Source: Candidatus Poribacteria bacterium
GTDB taxonomy: Bacteria > Poribacteria > WGA-4E > PCPOR2b
Direction: 5' to 3'
DNA length: 64,000 nt
Assembly (NCBI GenBank): GCA_965220385.1
Contig: OZ244825.1
Span: 212,769 to 276,768 of the forward strand
Shown: positions 3,395-50,631 of the stretch, one piece after another
How positions within the stretch are numbered: the stretch's first letter is position 1
How the letters are laid out: each line of letters starts with the position of its first letter
Program-made: the position numbers and the translations under genes
Notes under the pieces: model-generated
Databases searched by the model: none
Seen by the model: only the letters and a program-made list of their open reading frames with translations
Told to the model about the DNA's origin: nothing

Positions 3395-3925
3395 ATGCGA
3401 TATATTTCGTACTTCTTAATAATTGGATTGTTTGTCTTCGCTTCAGTTGCTTCAAATCAAGAGGGGGTGGACGAACCGATCCAAGTGGGTGAGCAGGTTC
3501 CCGATTTCACCTTGCAAGACGCCGAAGATCAGGAACACGCACTTAAGAAGATGCGGGGTAAGGTTGTCTTTCTGATAATGGGGCATCGAAAAATCCGGGA
3601 AGAAGATGATAAGTGGGGACGCGCCTTTCAGGTAGATTATGGGGAGAACGATAGGGTTATCGCATATATTGTCGCTGATATGCGGAGCGTGCCGGCGTTC
3701 GTGCCTAAGGGCTTTATTAAAAGGCAACTCAAGAAAAATAAGCCGCCGGTAACGCTGTTACTCGATTGGAAAGGCAAAGTGCATCAGACGTATCATACGG
3801 AGAAGGAAAAGCCGAATCTCTACCTCATTGACCCCGAAGGAAAACTCGCCTTTCATACAGAATCCAACTTCGACGAGGACACCTATCAAAAGCTGAAAGC
3901 AGTGATTGATGGGTTTACTAACTAA
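3395..3925 (+). CDS. Redoxin/AhpC-TSA-like thioredoxin-fold exported protein lacking CxxC
   Basis: Signal peptide; VGEQVPDFTLQD...GKVVFL; LYLIDPEGK. Confidence 0.7.
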   Translation: MRYISYFLIIGLFVFASVASNQEGVDEPIQVGEQVPDFTLQDAEDQEHALKKMRGKVVFLIMGHRKIREEDDKWGRAFQVDYGENDRVIAYIVADMRSVPAFVPKGFIKRQLKKNKPPVTLLLDWKGKVHQTYHTEKEKPNLYLIDPEGKLAFHTESNFDEDTYQKLKAVIDGFTN

Positions 3926-3931
3926 TAACCA

Positions 3932-4132
3932 TAGGACTTACGCAGTTAAATGGTCAAATCCCTGTAGTTCGGGATTCATCGCCGCCGTTCCCAACGCCCG
4001 ATGAATCCCCGATGAATCGGGATTAAGAAACGGGCAACTACAGTAGGGTTTCAGGTTTGTAGTAGGGCGATTTATCGCCCGTCGTGACGCGCAATGAATT
4101 GCGCTGCTACAAACTGAACTGCGTAACTCCTA
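3932..4132. mobile_element. TA-flanked MITE (family B) with REP hairpins
   Basis: Ends TAGGACTTACGCAGTT / AACTGCGTAACTCCTA (15/16 inverted match); internal hairpins; related copies at 5245-5401 and 33605-33806. Confidence 0.75.
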
Positions 4133-4154
4133 TAAAGATAAGGAACGAATCAAT

Positions 4155-4682
4155 ATGAACAGTGTATCGCCAGATAAACCGTTAGTCAGTATTGTTATGG
4201 GCAGTGATTCTGATCTGGACAAGATGAGCGAGGCTGCCGAAGTCTTAGAAGAATTTGATATCTCTTTTGAAATCACAATCTCGTCTGCACACCGCTCGCC
4301 AGAGCGGACAATGGAATACGCACACGGCGCGAACGATCGGGGTGTGCATGTCATCATCGCCGGCGCTGGACGCGCAGCCCATCTCGCCGGTGTCATTGCC
4401 GCGCATACCACCCTGCCTGTTATCGGTGTCCCTATTGACGGTGGACCGCTCAACGGAGTAGACGCGCTTTATGCCACCGTGCAGATGCCGCCCGGTATCC
4501 CCGTCGGGACAATGGCAATTGGATCCGGTGGTGCGCGTAACGCAGGGCTTTTCGCTGTCCAAATACTCGCACTCAAATTTCCTGAGCTCGGTGAGAAACT
4601 CGATGCGTACAAAGTCAAACTCAGCGACGGTGTAGCAGAGAAAGCCGAGCGGTTAGACGAGGTTGGCTACAAAAACTATTGA
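4155..4682 (+). CDS. purE: N5-carboxyaminoimidazole ribonucleotide mutase
   Basis: IVMGSDSD, SAHRSP, AGAGRAAHLAG, PVIGVP, VQMPPGIPV. Confidence 0.97.
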   Translation: MNSVSPDKPLVSIVMGSDSDLDKMSEAAEVLEEFDISFEITISSAHRSPERTMEYAHGANDRGVHVIIAGAGRAAHLAGVIAAHTTLPVIGVPIDGGPLNGVDALYATVQMPPGIPVGTMAIGSGGARNAGLFAVQILALKFPELGEKLDAYKVKLSDGVAEKAERLDEVGYKNY

Positions 4683-4729
4683 GGTTCCTGTAAACAGAGA
4701 GGGCAAACGTTTCTGCACAGAAGCTACTA

Positions 4730-5221
4730 TTGATTATGACGCAAAATTCAAAAGCAGATTGCTCCACAGATTTCTCAATAAGGGACAAGAAATCTGCCTT
4801 TAGGACGCGTAGCCCCGAGGAAACGCAGGAAATCGGTGTGCGGATTGGGAGCCAACTTAGCCCCGGTGATGTTGTCGCACTCATCGGTGATTTGGGAGCG
4901 GGAAAAACCTGTCTGACGCAGGGCATCGCCCGTGGAGTTGGTGTCTGTCAAGATGAGACCGTCAATAGCCCTTCCTACATCCTCATCAACGAATATGAGG
5001 GAAAAATCCCGATCTACCACATCGATCTCTATCGGCTTGAGCGGATAGGAGATATTGTCGATCTTGGGTTGGAGGAGTATTTAGAGGGAGATGGTATCTG
5101 CGTCATTGAATGGGGGGATCGGATGGGTGAACTGCTGCCCGAAAGCCACATTCAGGTCATAATCACCGCAGAAGATGAATTCACACGCACCATCGAAGTG
5201 TCGCCTATCAGCCCCAAGTAG
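4730..5221 (+). CDS. tsaE: tRNA threonylcarbamoyladenosine biosynthesis ATPase
   Basis: GDLGAGKT, VNSPSY, YHIDLYRL, IEW. Confidence 0.95.
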   Translation: MIMTQNSKADCSTDFSIRDKKSAFRTRSPEETQEIGVRIGSQLSPGDVVALIGDLGAGKTCLTQGIARGVGVCQDETVNSPSYILINEYEGKIPIYHIDLYRLERIGDIVDLGLEEYLEGDGICVIEWGDRMGELLPESHIQVIITAEDEFTRTIEVSPISPK

Positions 5222-5244: not shown

Positions 5245-5401
5245 TAGGACTTACGCAGCCAACTGTAGGCGGGGCATCTCCGATGAATCCCCGATGAATC
5301 GGGACAGGCGGGACAGGCGGGACTCCGATAAGCCGGGAGCAGGCAGGCGGGATTCAGAGCAACTTGCCCCGCACCAACTATGCTAAAATGTGCAAGTCCT
5401 A
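5245..5401. mobile_element. Family B MITE containing an interrupted GTAG-REP
   Basis: TAGGACTTACGCA ... TGTGCAAGTCCTA ends; REP halves at 5265-5279 and 5365-5372. Confidence 0.7.
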
Positions 5402-5475
5402 CTGTTATTTCCTTGCGTCTTTGTACCATTGCGACCTTGCGTTAAATATTCTTAGCACCTTTGGGGCACCAAAGA

Positions 5476-6699
5476 ATGGGTGAAACTGTGCAATCCCAGC
5501 GTAACATCTTGTACCTCGATAATGGGTCTGGCATTGGTGGTGGGCAGCGCAGCTTGCTATTGCTCCTCAAACATCTGGACGCGACACGGTTTCGCTCATT
5601 CCTCGGCTGTTTGGGAGACAGTATGCTGGCAGCGGCAGCGCGAAAAGCAGGACCCCCGGTCATCCCACTCAATCTGCCGAAGCAGCACGATAAGGGGGAC
5701 AAGGCACGCCGTTTCACACTCCACGACATCGGACGCGACCTGCAACATATCACGGTAATATTTCAGCTTTTGCGGGTGCTGGAAGAACAGCAAATCGATC
5801 TCCTCCATGCAAACTCTCTGGCTGCGGGTTTAATCGGTGGGGTTGCCGCGAAACTCTACGGCGTTCCAATCGTGATGCACAAACGGTACGCCACCGCGTA
5901 TGGCCTTTTGGATCGGATCTGTGAGGCACTGCTGGATCGTGTGATTCTGGTTTCGGAAGCAACGCGCTGGAAGTTTGCTCCACCCTCGAAGCAGGCGTTG
6001 ATCTATAACGGCGTCGAACTTTCGCCACTTCAATCCTCATCGCAAGTTGAGCGTCAGCGAAATCCCGATCTAATCGGGGTTGGACGTCAGCGAAATCCCG
6101 ATCCAATCGGGGTGGAAACGCTCCGAGCGGATCTCAACCTCGATCCCGATGCAGTGCTAATTGGTATTGTAACGCGCATCACGCCGGAGAAGGGGATTCA
6201 TACCTTAATTGAAGCAACCGCCAAACTCAAAGCATCGCCCCCTATCCAGCTGCTTGTTGTGGGCGGACCTTACTTTCCCAAAGATGCGGAATATATCGAT
6301 TCTCTGAAGGCACAAGCGAAAGAATTGGGAGTCACAGATCGTGTTATCTTCACCGGCTTTCTGGAAGATACGGGTGCGATTCTATCCCTCCTCGACATTG
6401 TTCTGCTTGCGTCAACCATCCCGGAAGCCTGCCCACGCACCATCATCGAAGCGATGGCAGCCGGTGTACCGGTCATTGCCACACCGCTCGGTGGAAGCAA
6501 GGAACTGGTAACACCGGAAACAGGACTCCTCGTCCCCGCTGAGGAGGCGGACGCCTTTGCTGCAGCGATTACCCAACTTGCCGAGGATACCGAGCGACGA
6601 AAACGGATGGGAAAGGCGTGCCGCTTGAGGGCAGAGCAACTGTTCTGTGCGACGCAGAATGCGCGGTTGACTGAAGACCTCTATTTAGATCTGTTGTGA
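5476..6699 (+). CDS. Glycosyltransferase family 4 (GT-B) with in-frame repeat insertion
   Basis: GGGQRS, IYNGV, KGIHTLIEA, EACPRTIIEAMAAGVPVIAT..GG..E. Confidence 0.9.
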   Translation: MGETVQSQRNILYLDNGSGIGGGQRSLLLLLKHLDATRFRSFLGCLGDSMLAAAARKAGPPVIPLNLPKQHDKGDKARRFTLHDIGRDLQHITVIFQLLRVLEEQQIDLLHANSLAAGLIGGVAAKLYGVPIVMHKRYATAYGLLDRICEALLDRVILVSEATRWKFAPPSKQALIYNGVELSPLQSSSQVERQRNPDLIGVGRQRNPDPIGVETLRADLNLDPDAVLIGIVTRITPEKGIHTLIEATAKLKASPPIQLLVVGGPYFPKDAEYIDSLKAQAKELGVTDRVIFTGFLEDTGAILSLLDIVLLASTIPEACPRTIIEAMAAGVPVIATPLGGSKELVTPETGLLVPAEEADAFAAAITQLAEDTERRKRMGKACRLRAEQLFCATQNARLTEDLYLDLL

Positions 6700-8165: not shown

Positions 8166-8573
8166 TGACCGATGGTGCTAATTTACAGCTATTGATACGC
8201 TCCTGAAAGTGAAACGTGAACACAGTTGGTTCATTGGGTAATTAATGAACTAGTGCTCTGGCATATAAATCATGATAAGTCTCTCACGGCTCGGCTCCGT
8301 TCCGCCTGTCCCGATTTATCGGGGAGAGTCCGAGACCCCGATAAATCGGGATTCAGAGCAACTTGGATAGCCATATCCAAGCCAGCTTTGCGGCGGTGTT
8401 GTGGATTTGTCAATCCACAACGAGCAGGGGCATTAACAATTATCTGACAATGTACTAGTGAACTAATGTACTAATGAACTCTATACGACAGTCTCACCAA
8501 CTAGCATTAAAGGTTAGTAGTATCGTTGGGAAATTAGGCTTACTGCTCACGTACCACTTGCACAGGGGAGGCA

Positions 8574-10794: not shown

Positions 10795-11050
10795 AGAAAT
10801 GGATGCACCGCTGAAAATGATTAGCAGGGGTAAAGTCCGCAGTCGTTTTCCCACCCTTCGATGGGAGTATGTTGTGGTGTTTTCCATCTTACCAAAGTTG
10901 CCCTTCGGGGCAGTGGATAGGGCGTTGTCCACTGGAGGAGACACCGTAAGATCCCGATAAATCGGGACAAGTGTCGTTGATACCACAATTCGACCTCCTA
11001 TTGACAATGGGTGAGTATCCCCAACCCTTTAGGATGTGGGAGTACGTCAA
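10795..11050 (+). mobile_element. Non-autonomous IS200/IS605-like element, TnpB omega-RNA-like right end
   Basis: Ends with hairpin TCCCCAACCCTTTAGGATGTGGGA then GTACGTCAA; upstream nested stems GGAGG/CCTCC and GACAC/GTGTC. Left boundary uncertain. Confidence 0.5.
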
Positions 11051-11073
11051 AACATAATATGGTGGCTCATGTA

Positions 11074-11156
11074 AAAACGGAGTGCAATTACGATTAAGGA
11101 ATACAGTGGAGAGCGGGGCAAGATGCCCCGCCTACGGGTTCTATTGCACACTTTCT
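11074..11156. mobile_element. 83-bp TA-flanked MITE-like element with intact GTAG-REP (11113-11135)
   Basis: TA at 11072 and 11157; partial TIR ...GTGCAAT / ATTGCAC...; REP GTAGGCGGGGCATCTTGCCCCGC on minus strand. Confidence 0.55.
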
Positions 11157-11671: not shown

Positions 11672-11692
11672 TTAAGATAAGGAGTATTAACA

Positions 11693-12670
11693 ATGTTAAA
11701 GTTTCAGATGGCTCTGATTGCCCTCTTGATCGGTTGCGTTGCCCTCATCTCCTGCGACCAGCTAGTAGTAGAAACATTAATACCAGCGCCACCAGAGGAT
11801 GATATGCCGGACGACATGATGGTTGGCTTGCCAATGTACATCGCAATGTACACTTCGTGGACGACGAATGTTACCTATCCCGAACCTGTAGGTACCGGTA
11901 ACGTGCACGGCGAAGGGGCTCGTACTGTTTACATCAACGACGTCGGAGCTATGGCGTTGGAAGATGAAAACCTGACCGCTTACCCCGCTGGGACTATAAT
12001 TGTCAAAGAAATCATGGACGACGCGAACACGTTTGTTCAGAAAGTCGCGACAATGAAGAAGACGGACGATTCGCGCCATAACGGGTGGACATACAAGAAA
12101 TATGCTCGCACCGATGAAAACACTGACTATATGCAGGTCGGAGGAGATGGACTCCCAGACGCAGCCGAAGGGTGTCATGCCTGCCACGCTGCAGCCCCCG
12201 TGGACAGTGTCTTCGTCGATTTCTCTATGGACGGCGAAATGCCAACTGACGGCGAAATGCCAACTGATGACACAATGGCAGCAGCGTACACCTCATGGCT
12301 GAGTGCTACACTTCCCACCGCTATCGGTTCCGGTGCTGCACACGGTCAGAACGCTCGCACCATCTATATCAACGATATCGGAGTGATGGCATTGCAGGCT
12401 GGGGAGACCACTTTCCCTGTCGGGACTATAGTGTACAAGGATATCATGGATGCCACGAACACCTCTGTTGTGTTAGTCGAGAGGATGGAAAAAACAGACG
12501 ATCCGATGTATGCTACAGAGAACGGATGGCTATACAACGAGGGTAACAGTCAAGCTGGGTGTCATGGCTGCCACGCGACCGCCGGTGTGGACCCCATCCC
12601 GGGCACAGACGCTGTCTTCACTGTCCCGGCCCTGATGGCTAGCCTCGCTGCCGCTGGCGCGGGTCAATAG
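11693..12670 (+). CDS. Lipoprotein with two tandem cytochrome P460/c'-beta family heme domains
   Basis: Lipobox LISC; two homologous domains, each with H...YIN, P.GT...K(E/D), M.K, GW, CxxCH (CHACH, CHGCH), D.VF. Confidence 0.8.
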   Translation: MLKFQMALIALLIGCVALISCDQLVVETLIPAPPEDDMPDDMMVGLPMYIAMYTSWTTNVTYPEPVGTGNVHGEGARTVYINDVGAMALEDENLTAYPAGTIIVKEIMDDANTFVQKVATMKKTDDSRHNGWTYKKYARTDENTDYMQVGGDGLPDAAEGCHACHAAAPVDSVFVDFSMDGEMPTDGEMPTDDTMAAAYTSWLSATLPTAIGSGAAHGQNARTIYINDIGVMALQAGETTFPVGTIVYKDIMDATNTSVVLVERMEKTDDPMYATENGWLYNEGNSQAGCHGCHATAGVDPIPGTDAVFTVPALMASLAAAGAGQ

Positions 12671-12852: not shown

Positions 12853-13023
12853 CTTAGAGAAGTTATGTAGAATATGAATTTGGCAGGTGCCTATCTTTTG
12901 CCGGTTGCGCTTTTCACTGCAACTATCTACCAATAGATGCGTACCTTGTCATTACCTTGCGACGCAGCTTGCAGGTTTCCAACGTTTGCTGCGAAACACA
13001 TTTTAAAATAAGGAGTATTAACA

Positions 13024-13428
13024 ATGTTAAAATTTCAGATGGCTCTGATGTTCCTTCTAATCGGTTGTGTCGCGGTCATGGGTTGTAGCGACTCCGCCAT
13101 GGTGGATATGATGGGCGGTATGATGGACGACGACGACGACGATATGGACGGCATGGATGACGGCATGGATGACGGCATGGACGGCATGGATGACGGCATG
13201 GACGGCATGGATGACGGCATGGACGGCATGGATGACGGCATGGACGGCATGGATGACGGCATGGACGACGGCATGGACGACGGCATGGACGACGGCATGG
13301 ACGGCATGGACGACGGCATGGACGACGGCATGGACGACGGCATGGACGACGGCATGGACGACGGCATGGACGACGGCATGGACGACGGCATGGACGACGG
13401 CATGGACGGCATGGACGACAGTCAGTAA
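13024..13428 (+). CDS. Met/Asp/Gly tandem-repeat lipoprotein (hypothetical)
   Basis: SD AAGGAG, lipobox VMGC, leader nearly identical to that of the 11693 gene; remainder is MDDG/MDG repeats. Confidence 0.75.
   Translation: MLKFQMALMFLLIGCVAVMGCSDSAMVDMMGGMMDDDDDDMDGMDDGMDDGMDGMDDGMDGMDDGMDGMDDGMDGMDDGMDDGMDDGMDDGMDGMDDGMDDGMDDGMDDGMDDGMDDGMDDGMDDGMDGMDDSQ
13144..13419 (+). repeat. Coding tandem repeat of 9- and 12-bp units
   Basis: 7x ATGGACGGC, 6x ATGGATGACGGC, 11x ATGGACGACGGC, 1 partial unit. Confidence 0.95.
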
Positions 13429-14744: not shown

Positions 14745-14936
14745 GTTCTGTTGACACTTGGCTGTCGAGATACGGGATAAAATAATACGTAATGCGTTAT
14801 GCGTAAGAAAAAACGGGACGCAGATCTGCGTCCCCTACGAATTGCCCTCGTTGATGAAGGTTTGAGGTCGAGCAAGTCCGAGAATATCCCGTGATCGGGG
14901 CTGCCCGACCTACGGGATATCAGATATCAATACGCC

Positions 14937-29781: not shown

Positions 29782-30268
29782 GGACCGCGGAGGTCTCCTT
29801 CCCAGTCGTATCAATTTTTGAGGTAACCGATATCACCCTTAGTTTACTACAGCTTGCCGAAATCGTCAATCCACAATTAGCGATAAAAATCATCTGTGGT
29901 CAATTAGGGAGTTACGCATCAAGTCCCCCTGACAAGGGGGATTTAGGGGGTTGCCTTTAATTCAAACTGTCTAAGTAAGTCTAAAATCTACGGGAGCGCC
30001 GAAAACGGAGGATTATTCTCGGTGGTTTAGGATATAAGGAACGGAGATCCTCATTCGCTCCAGTTGATCCGCTCAATATAACCGTCTTTCTGCCGTGCTT
30101 ACCGAGTTGGTATCATCAAAATGTCGATACTCCTGTATTATAAGATTATAGGAATTCGCATGGCAATTTTCTACGCTTGCGAATACCTCTCCAAGTGTGG
30201 TAGAATATCCCATCAAAAGTTTAGTCAAATAGGACTTGCGAAATCTAATTCTTCAAGAGGTTTATAAG

Positions 30269-33563: not shown

Positions 33564-33604
33564 CTGAATCCTTCTACATTGCCACTCATTGATTCTTGTC
33601 TCGT

Positions 33605-33806
33605 TAGGAGTTACGCACTTCAGTAAGGAACAACGATCGTTTTTCCCTACGAACTGTTGATGGGACCTCTATTGTAGTTGCCCGATTCATCGGGCGTCTG
33701 TTCCGTCTGTCCCGATTCCATCGGGGAGACCAGGATTGAGAAGGGTGTTTAGCGGCGATAAATCGCCGAACTACAGGGTTTTGAACGCTCAACTGTGTAA
33801 GTCCTA
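33605..33806. mobile_element. Family B MITE, inverted relative to 3932-4132
   Basis: TAGGAGTTACGCA ... AACTGTGTAAGTCCTA; shares CCCTGTAGTTCG and CGGGCAACTACA blocks with the 3932 copy. Confidence 0.75.
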
Positions 33807-33826
33807 CTCGTATAAGGGGATCAAAG

Positions 33827-34525
33827 ATGAACCGCAAAAAAACAGTACTCGTACTCTCCCTTTTGGCAGCTATCGGTATCATTGCTTTTTTCGTCTATGA
33901 GTTTTCTACTGCGGGTAAGGTTACGGTTAGGAGGGTGCCCCCTGAAAGATATACCGGTCCTCAGACGGTTGAAGCCCTGATGGCAGCGTTTGATGAGAAG
34001 TTTGACCGTCCCTATCTTGACAGGAAGATTGATCGGCAGTACCCCCGCGCGGAATGGCTTGCGATGTGTCTTGATAGAGGAGCCGTGTTTGGGGATTTCG
34101 GTGACTACTCTGATTTGATGAGCCAGCGATGGCTTTTGTTAAGTTTGGAGGAGAAGGGGGATTGGGTCAAAGGAGCTAGAGGCGTACCAGCGACGGATGA
34201 TTGGGAGACATTCAAGGACGCTTATATTGATAGGATGGTTTGGGAACACCAGAAAATTTATGAGGCGCGGCAGATTGACCCGGAAGTGTTCGGTGGGCTG
34301 TTTACCGGTCCTGATAAACGCATCTACCTACCGGGGCGTGCGAATCGCGTCTATGTTAAAAGAGGCAAGAAATCGGCATTTTTTCATGGTGCGCCACTTA
34401 CTGAGCTACAGCAGGTCATGATAACACTGTTAGGAATACACCCGAGAGGCTATGAAATCATCTATATTGATGAAAATGGAACTATCCTCTCCAAGCGTCC
34501 ACGACCCATCCTGCTCCCGATGTGA
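33827..34525 (+). CDS. Membrane-anchored hypothetical protein, paralog of 35626-37107
   Basis: N-terminal TM; shared blocks ERYTGPQTVEALM, YPRAEWLA, FGGLFTGPDKR.YLPG. Confidence 0.8.
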   Translation: MNRKKTVLVLSLLAAIGIIAFFVYEFSTAGKVTVRRVPPERYTGPQTVEALMAAFDEKFDRPYLDRKIDRQYPRAEWLAMCLDRGAVFGDFGDYSDLMSQRWLLLSLEEKGDWVKGARGVPATDDWETFKDAYIDRMVWEHQKIYEARQIDPEVFGGLFTGPDKRIYLPGRANRVYVKRGKKSAFFHGAPLTELQQVMITLLGIHPRGYEIIYIDENGTILSKRPRPILLPM

Positions 34526-34541
34526 TGACCCGTCCTCGCAA

Positions 34542-34580
34542 TTGCCGCCATTTTGTTCTGATAGTGGCGGTATTTTTTTT
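34542..34580 (+). terminator. Intrinsic terminator
   Basis: GCCGCCA / TGGCGGT stem followed by a T run. Confidence 0.6.
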
Positions 34581-34842
34581 AATTTTGCATGAGTGCCTCA
34601 TTACACTTCTCATATATAATCAGATTTGCCGACATCGCCACTCATTTACTGGATTTTTTTGAACGAAAAGATTATATATTCTAGAACGTATTGACATTTT
34701 GCTGTTGCGAATTTAAGAAAAATTGTAACCGTTGCTCTATCTGCCAAAAATTCAGACCTAAATCACCTCCAGGTGCATCAGTATTGGTTCAGTCCATCAA
34801 ATATCAACAAAAAAATAACCCCTCATTTGCTCTCATTCAAAC

Positions 34843-34887
34843 TATTTTCGTCAACTTGAAACTAATAGTTTCAAGTTGACGAAAATA
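34843..34887. repeat. Perfect 45-bp palindrome (22-bp arms)
   Basis: TATTTTCGTCAACTTGAAACTA-A-TAGTTTCAAGTTGACGAAAATA. Confidence 0.95.
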
Positions 34888-35091
34888 AATTTGTATTGTG
34901 TTTAACTCTTCTGGTATCCTTCAAATCGTAGAAAGGAAATTGGTTCAATATGCCCGGTTTCAAGCCTTTTGAGCGGGGGTATTCCTTTCTATAAGATGGT
35001 TATAGTTTGGATACTAACAAGCGCGAACTGTTCCTTTGAACGTTTGCGCGAATCATCAGGTTCTATGAGCCAATACAATGGAGGTTAAACA

Positions 35092-35556
35092 ATGTATCGG
35101 AAAGTTTTGTTTGCAACGCTGGCAGGGTTGTTTATTGTGAGTTTGTGCTTTTTCGTGTATAACCAGGTCCATGCTGCGGTGACTTGTAGTGCGAGTGCCT
35201 CTGCGAATTCCTTTTATGCTAGAGGCTCTGTATCCCCTGGGATTACAAATCTCGAATGGGAGCATAAAGAAGGTCAGAAGTATAATGGCACAGCAACGGT
35301 GAGAGCCGCATGCGGCGGAGATGTCGAGAAGCTGGAGGATGTAACAATTCGTATAAGGGTGGAGAAGGAAGAACACGGTTGGACTACTGGATCATACACG
35401 AATACTACATACGAATTGTATACAGTGAGTGAAGGTGCTAACGTACGGAACTGGGATTGGCCATCAGTTTCCAAAATTGGATACGCAACAGGTTCGATAA
35501 GCGGTGCCAGTGACACTGATCGTGCCGAATATCACTCTAGCGGTTACTACAATTAA
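35092..35556 (+). CDS. Secreted hypothetical protein
   Basis: SD GGAGG; signal peptide ending VHA; two Cys; appears beta-rich. Confidence 0.75.
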   Translation: MYRKVLFATLAGLFIVSLCFFVYNQVHAAVTCSASASANSFYARGSVSPGITNLEWEHKEGQKYNGTATVRAACGGDVEKLEDVTIRIRVEKEEHGWTTGSYTNTTYELYTVSEGANVRNWDWPSVSKIGYATGSISGASDTDRAEYHSSGYYN

Positions 35557-35625
35557 TCGTTCCTAAATTGGAAATTCGGGTGCCTTCAGGGCACCCGAAT
35601 TCTAACCTCATATAGGAAATAAAAG

Positions 35626-37107
35626 ATGAAACGCAAAAGAACAGTGCTAGCACTTTTCCTTTTGGCAACTATCGGTATCATCGCCTTTTTCGTCTTCCGA
35701 GTAAACCGACCAATCTTCCCTTTTCCCGCGTCTGGAGCTGGAGACTTTGTGGATGGAGGTGGACTCCACACGAGTCATCAAAAAGAATTTGAAGATCCGT
35801 GGCAGGCTTGGGTGGAAAAACAGACCGCCGAAACAGTGAAAAATATAGCAGCAGCGTACAAGAAACAGAAACAATCTCCAATGAATGAAAGTCAAATAGC
35901 AGAATGGCGCATCAATATTCATACCAACATGACAGAGTACGCCGAAAAGATGAAAGAGAAGTATTCTTCTCCTGCTGCGATGGAGGCAGGGGGAGATGGA
36001 TTATCCACTAAGGGGAAACTTACGGTTAGGAAAGTGCCCCTTGAAAGATATACCGGACCTCAGACGGTTGAAGCCCTGATGGAAGCATTTGATGCGTATG
36101 ACCGCAGCGGATATACAAATCCCCTAGATGCCTTAGCGGATGAGAAATATCCGCGTGCCGAATGGCTTGCGACGCTGCTTGATAAAGGAGTCATATTTGG
36201 GGATTATGGCGATTACTCTCTTTTTATGAACGAGCGAATAAATTTGGTAAGTTTTGAGCGTGATGAAGACTGGCGGCGATGGGGCGGGGGAAAATTCGAC
36301 GATTGGGAAACATTTAAGGAAGATTATATTGATAGGAGGGTTTGGGAAGAACAGCAAATCGCTGCTGAACGGCAAAGTGATCCAAGCGTGTTCGGTGGAC
36401 TATTTACCGGACCTGATAAGCGCACCTACCTCCCGGGACGTCCAAATCGCGTCTACGTTCAAAGAGAAGGGCGCGGGGCATTTTTTCATGGGGCACCACT
36501 TACTGATAAACAGCAGTGGGATATTATGTTGCAAGGGAAGCACCCGGAAGGGTATGAAATCATCTATGTCGATGAAAATGGGACTATTCTCTCCGAGCCA
36601 CCGCCACCCATCCCACCCCCGACGGGGGAAGAACGACGACAGTTGGAGGCGTGGCTGAAAAGAGGGGAAAGGCAACAGGCAGCCGACGTGCCAGACCAAA
36701 CTTTCGAGGATTTGGACGGTTGGGATAGCGGAGGCCAGGAGGACAGTCCTTCGGGGAACGAAACTGTGAGAGCAGAAGCCCAAGCCGCTCAGAAACGGTT
36801 TGAGCAATCACAAGCGGAGGCTTTAGAACGTGCTACCAAGAACGATACCGAAATAGGGGCAGCACTCGAAAAACAGTTGACACCCGAACTGCCCACAGCA
36901 GCGGGTACCGAAACGCAACTGAGTGAAAGATTCTCCCCTGAACGGTTGGAAAAAGCGCGAGAGGTCTTGGAACGGTATGGACCTGAGGAAGGGATGCGTC
37001 GTCTCAGAGAAGATGATCCCGAAGTTGCAGCGCAGGTTGAACGGACCCGTCGGGATCGGAACCCGGCTGAGAGCGAAACGGATGAACCTGAAAATCCAAC
37101 GCGGTAA
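35626..37107 (+). CDS. Membrane-anchored hypothetical protein, long paralog of 33827-34525
   Basis: Same core with an N-terminal insert and a Pro/acidic C-terminal extension. Confidence 0.8.
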   Translation: MKRKRTVLALFLLATIGIIAFFVFRVNRPIFPFPASGAGDFVDGGGLHTSHQKEFEDPWQAWVEKQTAETVKNIAAAYKKQKQSPMNESQIAEWRINIHTNMTEYAEKMKEKYSSPAAMEAGGDGLSTKGKLTVRKVPLERYTGPQTVEALMEAFDAYDRSGYTNPLDALADEKYPRAEWLATLLDKGVIFGDYGDYSLFMNERINLVSFERDEDWRRWGGGKFDDWETFKEDYIDRRVWEEQQIAAERQSDPSVFGGLFTGPDKRTYLPGRPNRVYVQREGRGAFFHGAPLTDKQQWDIMLQGKHPEGYEIIYVDENGTILSEPPPPIPPPTGEERRQLEAWLKRGERQQAADVPDQTFEDLDGWDSGGQEDSPSGNETVRAEAQAAQKRFEQSQAEALERATKNDTEIGAALEKQLTPELPTAAGTETQLSERFSPERLEKAREVLERYGPEEGMRRLREDDPEVAAQVERTRRDRNPAESETDEPENPTR

Positions 37108-46044: not shown

Positions 46045-46174
46045 GACATTTACCAAAGTCCCCCTGACAAGTGGTACATCCCGGTTTATCGGGGGCGGGA
46101 TTTAGGGGGTTGGTTCTGTAGTGGAGGCGTATAAGTAGGTCTAAAATCTACCACGGTTATATGGAGGCTTTTTA

Positions 46175-49124: not shown

Positions 49125-50397
49125 AGCAAGTTTAAGTATACATTTTGAGTTTTTACAGAAGGGTGTGCTGGAGCTGCCCTGATTCATGAATCCCCATCAA
49201 AGATTGGAATCGTGAAAACGGTAATCTATCCAGCCACCCGATGACAGTTTGACAGAGTTGAGAGAAACTGTTGAAAAAATAACTCCTGTTAATTTGATCT
49301 CGCATCAGATGCCACAATCGCTCAATGAGATTCAGATGTGGACTATAAGTTGGCATCGGGACTAAACGCAATCGGTCTTTGTGGTGAATCAGGAAATCGT
49401 CAAGTTTTGCCGTTGTATGACTCGATGCATTATCACGGACGACAAACAGCAACTCATCGGGATACATATCCATTAGGTTTTGCCAATGTGTTTTGATCTG
49501 AAGATGGGTTTTATTGGCATAGATTTCATACAAGCCGGCCCCCGAAGGATACTCTAAGGAGCCGATGAGGTATTTCCGCCGGTTTTTGCCGGGGGTGTTG
49601 ACCTTATATTCAGTGCCTTGCTGTCGATAAATACGTCCACTGTTGGGACACCAAGACACGTTAGCTTCATCAAAGAAAAACAGGCGAGCCGTCTTTTTTT
49701 CGGTCTCAAGTGCAGACAGACCTAAACGCCGAAGTTGGGTATCCGGGAGAATCAACCGAGTCGCCTCACTCGTCAACTCTCCCGTTTTGGCAAACACCTC
49801 AACTCCGTCAGTTGAGTCCGTTTCGCTTGATATTCTGGATCCGGACTGCCAACACGGAGTTTGCTTCGACCGGTGCGGTAGCCTACCCGTCGTAAAGCCA
49901 GATGGATCGCTGGCGGTGTGACCGAAATCTCGTGATACGCTTGGAGATAAACTCTTATCAGCTCAAGCGTCCATTGTCGAGAGTCCGTCTGAAGTTTTTC
50001 GTATTGATTCGGCGTTTGCTCAAGAAGTCGATTCCAGTCCGATTTGCTAAAGTGTGTGATTTTACCACGACGCCCCGGAGGACGCTTAGGCATCAACGCA
50101 TCTAAACCAGAGCTATTGTATGTATGAATATAAGTCCTAACACTCTCATCAGAGAGATTAAACATCTTGGCGAGTTTCGACACGGGCATACGTTCAATGC
50201 CACTAAGTTTGATGATTAGTAAACGCCTATACCATTTCGGGTGTGTCGCTTCACAAAGCGCAACATCAAGACGTTCAACAGCCAAGGAATCGTTAAGTTC
50301 TGCGTAAATCATCAATTAAGACACTCCTTGTGAGATAGATTTACACACAGTATAACGCAAAACTCTATAAATTGGTGATTTATTATTTAATATTGCT
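49125..50397 (-). mobile_element. IS630-family insertion sequence, two ORFs (49773-50315 HTH; 49153-49797 DDE)
   Basis: FFDE, VVRDNASSH, SPHLNLIERLW; TA-flanked ends TAAGCAAGTTT.. and ..AATATTGCTTA. Confidence 0.9.
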
Positions 50398-50399
50398 TA

Positions 50400-50631
50400 A
50401 GCAATATTGAATAATAAACTTTCGATTCTCAGTAGGTGTCGCACCCGTAGGGGCGGGGTTTCCCCGCCCGCCATCGATGTAAAATGTGCATATTTAATAT
50501 TGAAACTTGCTTATGAGAGCAATATTGAATAATAAACTTTCGATTCTCAGTAGGTGTCGCACCCGTAGGGGCGGGGTTTCCCCGCCCGCCATCGATGTAA
50601 AATGTGCATATTTAATATTGAAACTTGCTTA
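50400..50631. repeat. Two identical 114-bp copies (50400-50513, 50518-50631) of an IS630-cognate MITE with REP cargo
   Basis: Direct comparison of both copies; ends match the adjacent IS630 ends. Confidence 0.9.

Follow-up and report, generated by a model that had tools for sequence, protein, structure and literature searches.

To our knowledge, the spread of repetitive extragenic palindromic sequences (REPs) and of SDR-type repeats is unsettled and the activity of RAYTs has been demonstrated in vitro only; going by the descriptions available of SDRs, we know of no transposase or mechanism for them. The repeats SDR1-8 of Nostoc punctiforme and its relatives are reportedly described in Elhai et al. 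2008, Genome Res 18:1484, as 'very small mobile repeated elements'. As summarized in papers citing that work, SDRs are mobile repeats of 21-27 nt that nest in other repeats, and SDR5 inserts between nucleotides 3 and 4 of the HIP1 palindrome. RAYTs (TnpA_REP, Y1 HUH) cleave single-stranded DNA between C and T and transfer strands in vitro (PMC3333891, PMC8266576), and the group-3 REPs of S. maltophilia consist of GTAG, an 8-bp perfect stem and a 3-nt loop, 23 nt in all (PMC8266576). Rickettsia palindromic elements are palindromic repeats found in frame in unrelated protein genes, to which they add a conserved peptide (PMC10969869). Here we describe, in a 64,000-nt stretch of Candidatus Poribacteria DNA (contig OZ244825.1, positions 212,769 to 276,768; hereafter the window), two Poribacteria-specific families of non-autonomous micro-elements, T1 and T2, each opening (5') with the hairpin CCCGAT-N2-3-ATCGGG and closing with a short tail whose last base is C. 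Their nearest precedents are the cyanobacterial SDRs and the REP/RAYT system, and they add a new phylum to the range of the very small mobile elements, a rare class. A literature search found no paper reporting such repeats in Poribacteria.

As far as the citing papers describe SDRs, T1 (24-33 nt) and T2 (20-21 nt) resembled them in size class (about 20-30 nt), high copy number, hairpin potential, presence/absence polymorphism and precise nesting in palindromes. They differed in having statable targets, C^T(T/G)G for T1 and TC^GG for T2 (^ marks the insertion point), canonical GTAG REPs as hosts, and common in-frame insertions in genes. Their carriers are Poribacteria, not Nostocaceae, and their sequences are presumably unrelated to SDR1-8.

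Candidatus Poribacteria are uncultured and sponge-associated. The window is ordinary chromosomal DNA of a sponge symbiont, part of a 6.35-Mb contig, and its genes, assigned with Pfam, include purE, tsaE, a GT4 glycosyltransferase, an ABC sugar transporter, phosphoenolpyruvate carboxykinase and similar; a Uma2 gene is present as well. The sequencing runs that contained window sequence were sponge or marine metagenomes. A look-up of the exact PurE product gave no match. Relatives were located via the glycosyltransferase protein, and syntenic loci were taken from six other Poribacteria genomes with a gene-level nucleotide identity of 82-94% to the window. The family was surveyed by scanning the T1 tail CGGGATTCAGAGCAAC across species-representative genomes, which gave 113 loci; about half were Poribacteria with the hairpin, and the rest were chance matches without it. 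Hairpins and REPs were counted in 50 Poribacteria loci (506 kb of fetched DNA), and target statistics were taken from 43 simple T1 copies, representing 22 distinct flanking contexts, and from 20 T2 copies. Loci of other genomes are labeled L and sequencing runs X.

T1 is 24-33 nt long; behind CCCGAT-N2-3-ATCGGG comes a tail of 9-18 nt that terminates in (C/G)A(A/C)C. The tail is ATTCAGAGCAAC or a variant of it; the commonest T1 is CCCGATAAATCGGGATTCAGAGCAAC (26 nt), and variants include ATCCAAAGCGAA, ATTTTCAAC, ATTTCGCTGACGCTCAAC (a gene copy), ATATTCTCGGAC (14876-14899) and ATGTACCAC (46071-46094). T2 is CCCGAT-N2-3-ATCGGGACAGGC with the tail ACAGGC, 20-21 nt long. The hairpin letters of the Poribacteria micro-elements are CCCGATAAATCGGG. 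The 2-nt-loop form CCCGATNNATCGGG, with up to one mismatch, had 8 matches in the window versus 0.13 expected, and perfect CCCGAT-N2-3-ATCGGG copies with loops of 2-3 nt numbered 11 in 64 kb. The Poribacteria loci held 125 hairpin copies, compared with none in about 70 unrelated loci; copy number was of the order of 10^2, and the depth of the T2 word was hundreds of times the unique depth. Chance resemblance or an assembly artefact, for which nothing speaks beyond the repetitiveness of the region, is a negligible prospect, as the motif counts far exceeded those in shuffles and the same structures were found in independent assemblies and samples. Moreover, source runs X1-X4 contained 99-100% of the sampled window words, and the X1 unitigs flanking the inserts agreed with the window with no differences.

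The intergenic DNA of this chromosome consists of small repeats nested in one another. The micro-elements and host repeats that carry the argument were located in the window as follows.

5245-5402, plus strand: outer frame round REP1, with inverted ends TAGGACTTACGCAG...GTGCAAGTCCTA; a carrier resembling a miniature inverted-repeat transposable element (MITE)
5265-5278, plus strand: 5' part of REP1, comprising GTAG (5265-5268), the 5' arm GCGGGGCA (5269-5276, 8 nt) and the loop bases TC (5277-5278)
5279-5363, plus strand: insert A, 85 nt, between the REP1 loop bases TC and T; placement ambiguous by 2 nt
5364-5372, plus strand: 3' part of REP1, comprising the loop base T (5364) and the 3' arm TGCCCCGC (5365-5372)
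6046-6078 and 6079-6111, minus strand: tandem T1b, 2 x 33 nt in frame, CCCGATT(A/G)GATCGGGATTTCGCTGACG(CT/TC)CAAC
8296-8362, plus strand: insert B, 67 nt, made up of a 24-nt segment with an inverted T2 (8304-8323) and a simple 26-nt T1 (8337-8362, CCCGATAAATCGGGATTCAGAGCAAC)
11113-11135, minus strand: intact, empty REP1, GTAGGCGGGGCATCTTGCCCCGC, 23 nt, that is GTAG, an 8-bp stem and the 3-nt loop TCT
14866-14913, minus strand: filled REP3, GTAG-GTCGGGCA-[gc + 24 nt + t]-TGCTCGACC, of the family gtagGTCGGGCAtctTGCCCGAC
14876-14899, minus strand: decayed 24-nt T1 inside REP3, CCCGATCACGGGATATTCTCGGAC, at the loop position GC^...^T as in REP1
29921-29953, plus strand: empty host repeat, AAGTCCCCCTGACAAGGGGGATTTAGGGGGTTG
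46071-46094, minus strand: T1-like insert of 24 nt, CCCCGATAAACCGGGATGTACCAC, in the repeat 46056-46112 at TCCCCC^TTGTCAGGGGGA, with one host substitution besides

REP1 has the formula GTAG + GCGGGGCA + tct + TGCCCCGC, with an 8-bp perfect stem and a 3-nt loop; the predicted energy of the DNA hairpin was -10.9 kcal/mol (z -4.8). The 5' part at 5265-5278 did not differ from the corresponding bases of the 11113-11135 copy or of the intact orthologous REPs in L001 and L002. In the latter two genomes, the spacer between tsaE and the glycosyltransferase gene carried an intact 23-nt REP1 at the exact spot, and the aligned flanks were otherwise collinear. When an empty site A was sought in closer relatives (runs X5, X7 and X9), all were filled as in the window; the site was empty only in the more distant L001 and L002. 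Insert A was a nested composite that ran from the T1 5' part TCCGATGAATC through a T2 at 5290-5309 (CCCGATGAATCGGGACAGGC), a 9-nt GGGACAGGC duplicate and a small hairpin unit TCCGATAAGCCGGGAGCAGGC to the T1 3' part CGGGATTCAGAGCAAC at 5348-5363. The same architecture recurred in the REP1 loops of the Poribacteria L035, L110 and L107, and inter-arm inserts of graded length (29, 49, 70 and 88 nt) were present in REP loops of other genomes. The outer frame recurred at many loci with REP1 either empty or filled (L030, L031, L042, L081 and others).

The original prediction, made from the letters of the window, had paired a REP intact at 11113-11135 (minus) with a copy split by about 85 bp, and a repeat intact at 29921-29953 with a copy at 46056-46112 that held a net 24-bp insert. 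Both pairs were present, with the insert boundaries corrected from 5280-5364 to 5279-5363 and from 46072-46096 to 46071-46094, and site A gained orthologous empty counterparts in L001 and L002. The third REP that it had listed with an insert between its arms, at 14866-14913, was likewise found and is a filled member of the gtagGTCGGGCAtctTGCCCGAC family; L003 carried the identical filled copy, and empty members of the family also exist.

At the locus orthologous to the 46-kb site, L126 was empty, L125 (98% identical to the window) was filled, and L127 was filled at the same point with a larger nested composite. The lineages were almost equidistant, with identities of 89.3, 87.5 and 86.6%, so that either one gain or a gain with a precise loss would fit. 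A 24-nt skip at this site was sought in the sequencing runs and none was found; the filled 57-nt form is itself multi-copy.

Insert B lies in the spacer between the substrate-binding protein (SBP) and permease genes, in the 5' arm (10-bp stem) and not the loop of the hairpin GGC^TTGGATA-gcca-TATCCAAGCC (GGCTTGGATA-gcca-TATCCAAGCC). The site was empty in the orthologous L002, and contigs of run X5 joined 8294 to 8362, skipping exactly 67 nt. The SBP-permease spacer itself (window 8166-8573) measured 53-56 nt in L003, L008 and L009; in the window, L002 and L006 its length was 341-418 nt, as elements of about 300-360 nt that differ from lineage to lineage have entered it.

Insertions were also found inside genes. 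In the GT4 glycosyltransferase gene (5476-6699), the tandem T1b pair occupied the linker between domains, where it encodes RQRNPDLIGVG and RQRNPDPIGVE. Orthologues without a T1 copy were 382-385 aa long, with the empty site GTTTCGGC^TTGCG in L009, and those with one copy (L001, L002, L006 and L008) were 393-396 aa long. The L123 gene carried one T1 with a nested 21-nt T2, giving the protein ...RQRN(P/L)[ACPDEIG]D(P/L)IG..., and formed with its T2-free orthologues a direct filled/empty pair for T2. Because the host is unique coding DNA, recombination between repeats cannot explain the glycosyltransferase insertions. At least 8 T1 copies lay within long open frames (197-843 codons); all were 27 nt long, and the opposite strand of most read ...VALNPDxIG.... 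Every gene copy was a multiple of 3 in length, T1 being 27 or 33 nt (VALNPDxIG or RQRNPDxIG) and the nested T2 21 nt, while T1 in REP loops was mostly 26 nt. By analogy with Rickettsia palindromic elements, this length pattern would be expected if only in-frame variants survive.

Other small palindromes were seen near these insertions. The L124 glycosyltransferase orthologue carried at about 3590-3640 a different small hairpin with G/C runs, CCCCCCCGCCAGCGGGGGGG (protein PPLSPPRWRGGK), at approximately the same linker site as the window T1, and this site appears to have been hit repeatedly by unrelated small palindromes. In L047, a TnpB open reading frame (ORF; 3537-4800) contained an in-frame 27-nt T1 and five copies of a repeat of about 18 nt, CCTGGTCTCGGAACGGAC, which is itself a T2 target.

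The presence or absence of T1 and T2 units differed between orthologous sites of related genomes at four places (sites A and B, the glycosyltransferase gene and 46 kb), and their activity is recent enough for differences between strains about 2-10% apart. The data argue strongly that T1 and T2 are site-specific mobile micro-elements. An alternative that we consider unlikely, although it carries appreciable weight, is that the multi-copy host repeats fall into a filled and an empty subfamily, and that the loci at 5265, 8296 and 46071 differ by gene conversion or replacement or by the independent arrival of a host that was already filled. It is consistent with three hosts being found filled elsewhere, in other genomes as well (REP1 framed by TAGGACTTACGCA, the hairpin element GGCTTGGATA and the 46-kb repeat of 57 nt), with the resemblance of insert A, a pre-assembled 85-nt composite, to that of L107, and with the filled, empty, filled pattern over three nearly equidistant lineages at 46 kb. 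Such an exchange, however, leaves the origin of the filled forms unexplained and does not account for the glycosyltransferase case, in which unique sequence is filled and orthologous sites are empty, or for T1 in at least 8 different ORFs. Furthermore, the left junction of insert A lay on a single unbranched unitig of the source run, and no identical donor was evident. Since filled hosts are themselves multi-copy, some paralogous filled/empty pairs, and perhaps also the differences at sites A, B and 46 kb, could still stem from conversion or replacement between repeat subfamilies and not from fresh insertion on the spot.

No terminal inverted repeats were found in T1 (ends CCCGAT.../...GCAAC) or T2 (ends CCCGAT.../...ACAGGC), the palindrome being internal and 5'-proximal, and no target-site duplication was found at any junction, the filled/empty alignments showing only a placement ambiguity of 1-2 nt. 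Both elements inserted with a fixed orientation to the target motif and tolerated cargo nested within them. Each had a single hairpin, at its 5' end, and not the subterminal hairpins at both ends that mark IS200/IS605 elements. GTAG was absent from the 5' foot of the T1 and T2 hairpins, where the bases 5' of CCCGAT were target-derived and variable save for the last C. T1 and T2 are accordingly not REPs, which have GTAG, not MITEs of DDE transposases, which have terminal inverted repeats and target duplications, and not typical IS200/IS605 derivatives. Movement as ordinary MITEs by a DDE transposase, such as the IS630-like enzyme encoded at 49153-50315, is very improbable: although the window does encode a DDE_3 transposase and the outer TAGGACTTACGCA...TGCGTAAGTCCTA frames are MITE-like, the micro-elements measure only 20-33 nt, lack both hallmarks and show no TA duplication of the kind typical of IS630/Tc1.

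The bases around the insertion points defined the targets. The left base of T1 was C in 40 of 43 copies, and the right flank was TTG in 23 and TGG in 12 (35 of 43 jointly). All filled/empty comparisons for T1 fit C^T(T/G)G; with the 1-nt ambiguity, ^CT(T/G)G is equally possible. T2 was preceded by TC in all 20 copies and followed by GG in 17, which gives the site TC^GG. The family's own hairpin supplies this motif as its 3' arm (ATC^GGG), and one other small repeat contains it; 11-12 of the 20 T2 hosts rebuilt another micro-hairpin split at ATC^GGG in its 3' stem arm, and 7 lay in the different small repeat, ...CTC^GGAAC....

REP1 and REP3 qualify as REPs, with GTAG immediately 5' of the stem at 5265 (plus), 11135 (minus) and 14913 (minus). 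There were 109 perfect GTAG REPs in the 506 kb. REP1/REP3 copies numbered 37, 16 of them filled and 21 empty, the loop of the latter being TCT or, in 5 taken from the opposite strand, its complement AGA. All 16 filled copies held a T1-family unit at TC^T in one orientation, with at least 4 tail variants. Insertion points mapped over the host-repeat copies were therefore clearly non-random within REP1/REP3, with one loop position in 16 of 16, as the original prediction had anticipated. Its further proposals, that a micro-hairpin enters the loops of other repeats and that insertion is directed to hairpin loops, stood in part. Precise insertions of hairpin units did occur, but insert A is a nested composite and not one micro-hairpin. 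The loop location applied to REP1/REP3, whereas the 46-kb insertion point fell just within the stem, by one base pair (TCCCCC^TTGTCAGGGGGA, minus strand). Loops were enriched, but about 18 of the 22 distinct T1 contexts were not loops, and site B and typically T2 fell in stem arms.

If insertion were directed by structure, an enzyme would recognize the host stem-loop and integrate the micro-hairpin into its loop. The placement of the REP1/REP3 inserts between loop bases 2 and 3 in every filled copy agrees with this, and the same geometry was found in other hosts (tcgctccTC^Tggagcga, gccccGC^Tggggc). Loops made up 3-4 of the 22 distinct T1 contexts versus 2.1% of 7,200 unoccupied C^T(T/G)G sites, a 7-10-fold enrichment (odds ratio about 10, Fisher p about 0.001). 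On the other side, no hairpin was present in about 18 of the 22 distinct contexts, which were unstructured DNA, a stem arm (as at site B) or genes; T2 entered a stem arm in 11-12 of 20 cases, and some insertions were in unique coding DNA. No REP family whose loop lacks CT-TG/GG, such as those with gatc, tcc or ttt loops, was seen filled in the fetched Poribacteria DNA. In addition, many of the loop cases were copies of a few host families and not independent events. The apparent loop preference is also inflated by the multiplication of whole filled hosts, several copies having been found of the REP1 framed by TAGGACTTACGCA, of the GGCTTGGATA element and of the 57-nt repeat of 46 kb, each in its filled form. 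We regard direction by host structure as quite unlikely. From the flanking sequences, a short sequence motif, which accounts for many more copies than structure, looks to be the main determinant of targeting, with loops favored; REP loops would often be targeted because loops of the type ...CA-TCT-TG... display the T1 motif, possibly more accessibly.

The best explanation, and one that we consider probable, is that the micro-elements move to short sequence motifs, presumably by an enzyme acting in trans. A small single-stranded DNA hairpin would be recognized by the trans-acting enzyme, which would cut after C and rejoin the DNA seamlessly; the leading candidate would be a Y1 HUH transposase, either a RAYT or an IS200/IS605 TnpA. 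The outcome of these insertions is a Russian-doll nesting of small hairpin in T2, T2 in T1, T1 in a REP loop and REP in a MITE-like frame, and the filled hosts subsequently multiply as units.

An HUH-type identity of the enzyme that would move T1 and T2, at which the original prediction had hinted, is put forward tentatively and at somewhat below an even chance. A single-strand mechanism of the HUH type would agree with the hairpins that the elements carry and with their lack of terminal inverted repeats and target duplications. On one reading the T1 junction lies between C and T, the RAYT cleavage dinucleotide, canonical GTAG REPs are abundant, and these genomes contain an IS605-family right-end relic and TnpB genes. 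Several findings weigh against it. T1 and T2 have no GTAG 5' of the hairpin. The T2 junction is C^G and not between C and T, and that of T1 is C^TTG or ^CTTG; RAYT specificity is thus matched in part only. For T1 outside REP loops, a GTAG REP was found within 500 nt on the same strand in 9% and on the opposite strand in 20%, compared with 7% in the control. Finally, no Y1/HUH gene was detected in the window (Pfam) or in about 1 Mb of fetched DNA (six-frame scans for the HUH and Tyr motifs), a result that is uninformative because just 1-3 such genes are expected per 6-Mb genome.

The expectation for a cis-acting RAYT, that T1 lies near a GTAG REP on the same strand, failed for T1 outside REP loops. 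The right-end relic spans about 10936-11053, 60 nt upstream of the intact REP1, and lacks TnpB. It aligned with the 3' (right) end of the IS605-family TnpB element of L047, ending in ...GGGAGTACGTCAA before AA, and Rfam found nothing there; the micro-hairpin at 10953-10966 takes the place held by a different stem-loop in L047. No Rfam family was found at the gathering score over the whole window, nor at E<=1 in 10.5-11.7 kb.

Compared with the REP/REPIN-RAYT system, the hosts REP1 and REP3 match the group-3 architecture and are very abundant, and the T1 junction fits cleavage between C and T on one reading. In contrast, T1 and T2 lack a 5' GTAG, have a 3' tail and insert inside genes, and the T2 junction is C^G; no RAYT gene, flanked by REPs (a REPtron) or otherwise, was located in the window or the roughly 1 Mb fetched, and no same-strand association with REPs in cis was seen. 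T1 and T2 share with IS200/IS605 elements and their non-autonomous derivatives (PATEs) a hairpin-bearing end, the lack of terminal inverted repeats and target duplications, sequence and orientation specificity, and seamless junctions. They differ from IS200/IS605 in having one hairpin at one end, a total length of 20-33 nt, and a conserved target mainly 3' of the insertion point instead of a 4-5-nt motif 5' of the left end. Rickettsia palindromic elements are about 100-150 bp long, whereas T1 adds only 9-11 residues (VALNPDxIG/RQRNPDxIG) and also targets REP loops.

A bolder and rather doubtful proposal is that no transposable DNA units with site specificity smaller than T1 and T2 have yet been defined outside cyanobacteria, and that T1 and T2 are moved as single-stranded hairpins by a RAYT-like HUH enzyme of Poribacteria. 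If this were true, the filled and empty sites would be in vivo footprints of a strand transfer so far seen only in vitro, seamless excision would occur (L126 being empty between filled lineages), and proteins would routinely be remodeled in frame by 7-11 residues. The Poribacteria elements provide explicit target motifs, exact junctions, gene copies and many filled/empty orthologous sites over dozens of complete chromosomes, features that make the question of how such small repeats spread testable by comparative genomics (gains, losses and strand bias) and a simple biochemical assay. They also matter for annotation, as they put 7-22 residues into real proteins and short-read assemblies break at every copy.

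Further family members and related small repeats were located in the window.

4008-4021, plus strand: perfect micro-hairpin CCCGATGAATCGGG, with the tail ATTAAGAAACGGGCAAC followed by TACAG
Starts at 18, 10953, 21658, 33681 and 33711: further perfect micro-hairpins of the family

Two spacers, 3926-4154 and 33564-33826, were framed by TAGGA(C/G)TTACGCA...TG(C/T)GTAA(C/G)TCCTA with inner inverted feet CTGTAGTT...AACTACAG. They hold small REPs with GTAG 2 nt from a 6-7-bp stem, and a separate subset of micro-hairpins does have GTAG, for example gtagttGCCCGAttcaTCGGGC at 33674. Because the stem sequence of this small-REP family equals that of the micro-hairpin, T1 and T2 may derive from it.

A search for tRNAs found none in the window. 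Several observations concerned its other parts. The ORF at 13024-13428, adjoining a cytochrome P460-like gene (11693-12670), consisted almost entirely of 9/12-nt tandem repeats (GACGGCATGGAC...) and encodes a low-complexity protein rich in Asp, Gly and Met. The first 57 nt or so of the P460-like gene and 21 nt upstream (11672-11748) recurred at 13003-13079, at the start of this ORF. The IS630-like transposase was split over two overlapping ORFs (DDE_3, 49153-49797; HTH, 49773-50315), beside which 114 nt were perfectly duplicated in tandem (50400-50513 and 50518-50631), with the REP gtagGGGCGGGGtttCCCCGCCC in both copies. A paralogous gene pair at 33827-34525 and 35626-37107 (window 33815-37107), of unassigned function, shared blocks that were 73-88% identical, including signal-peptide-like starts.

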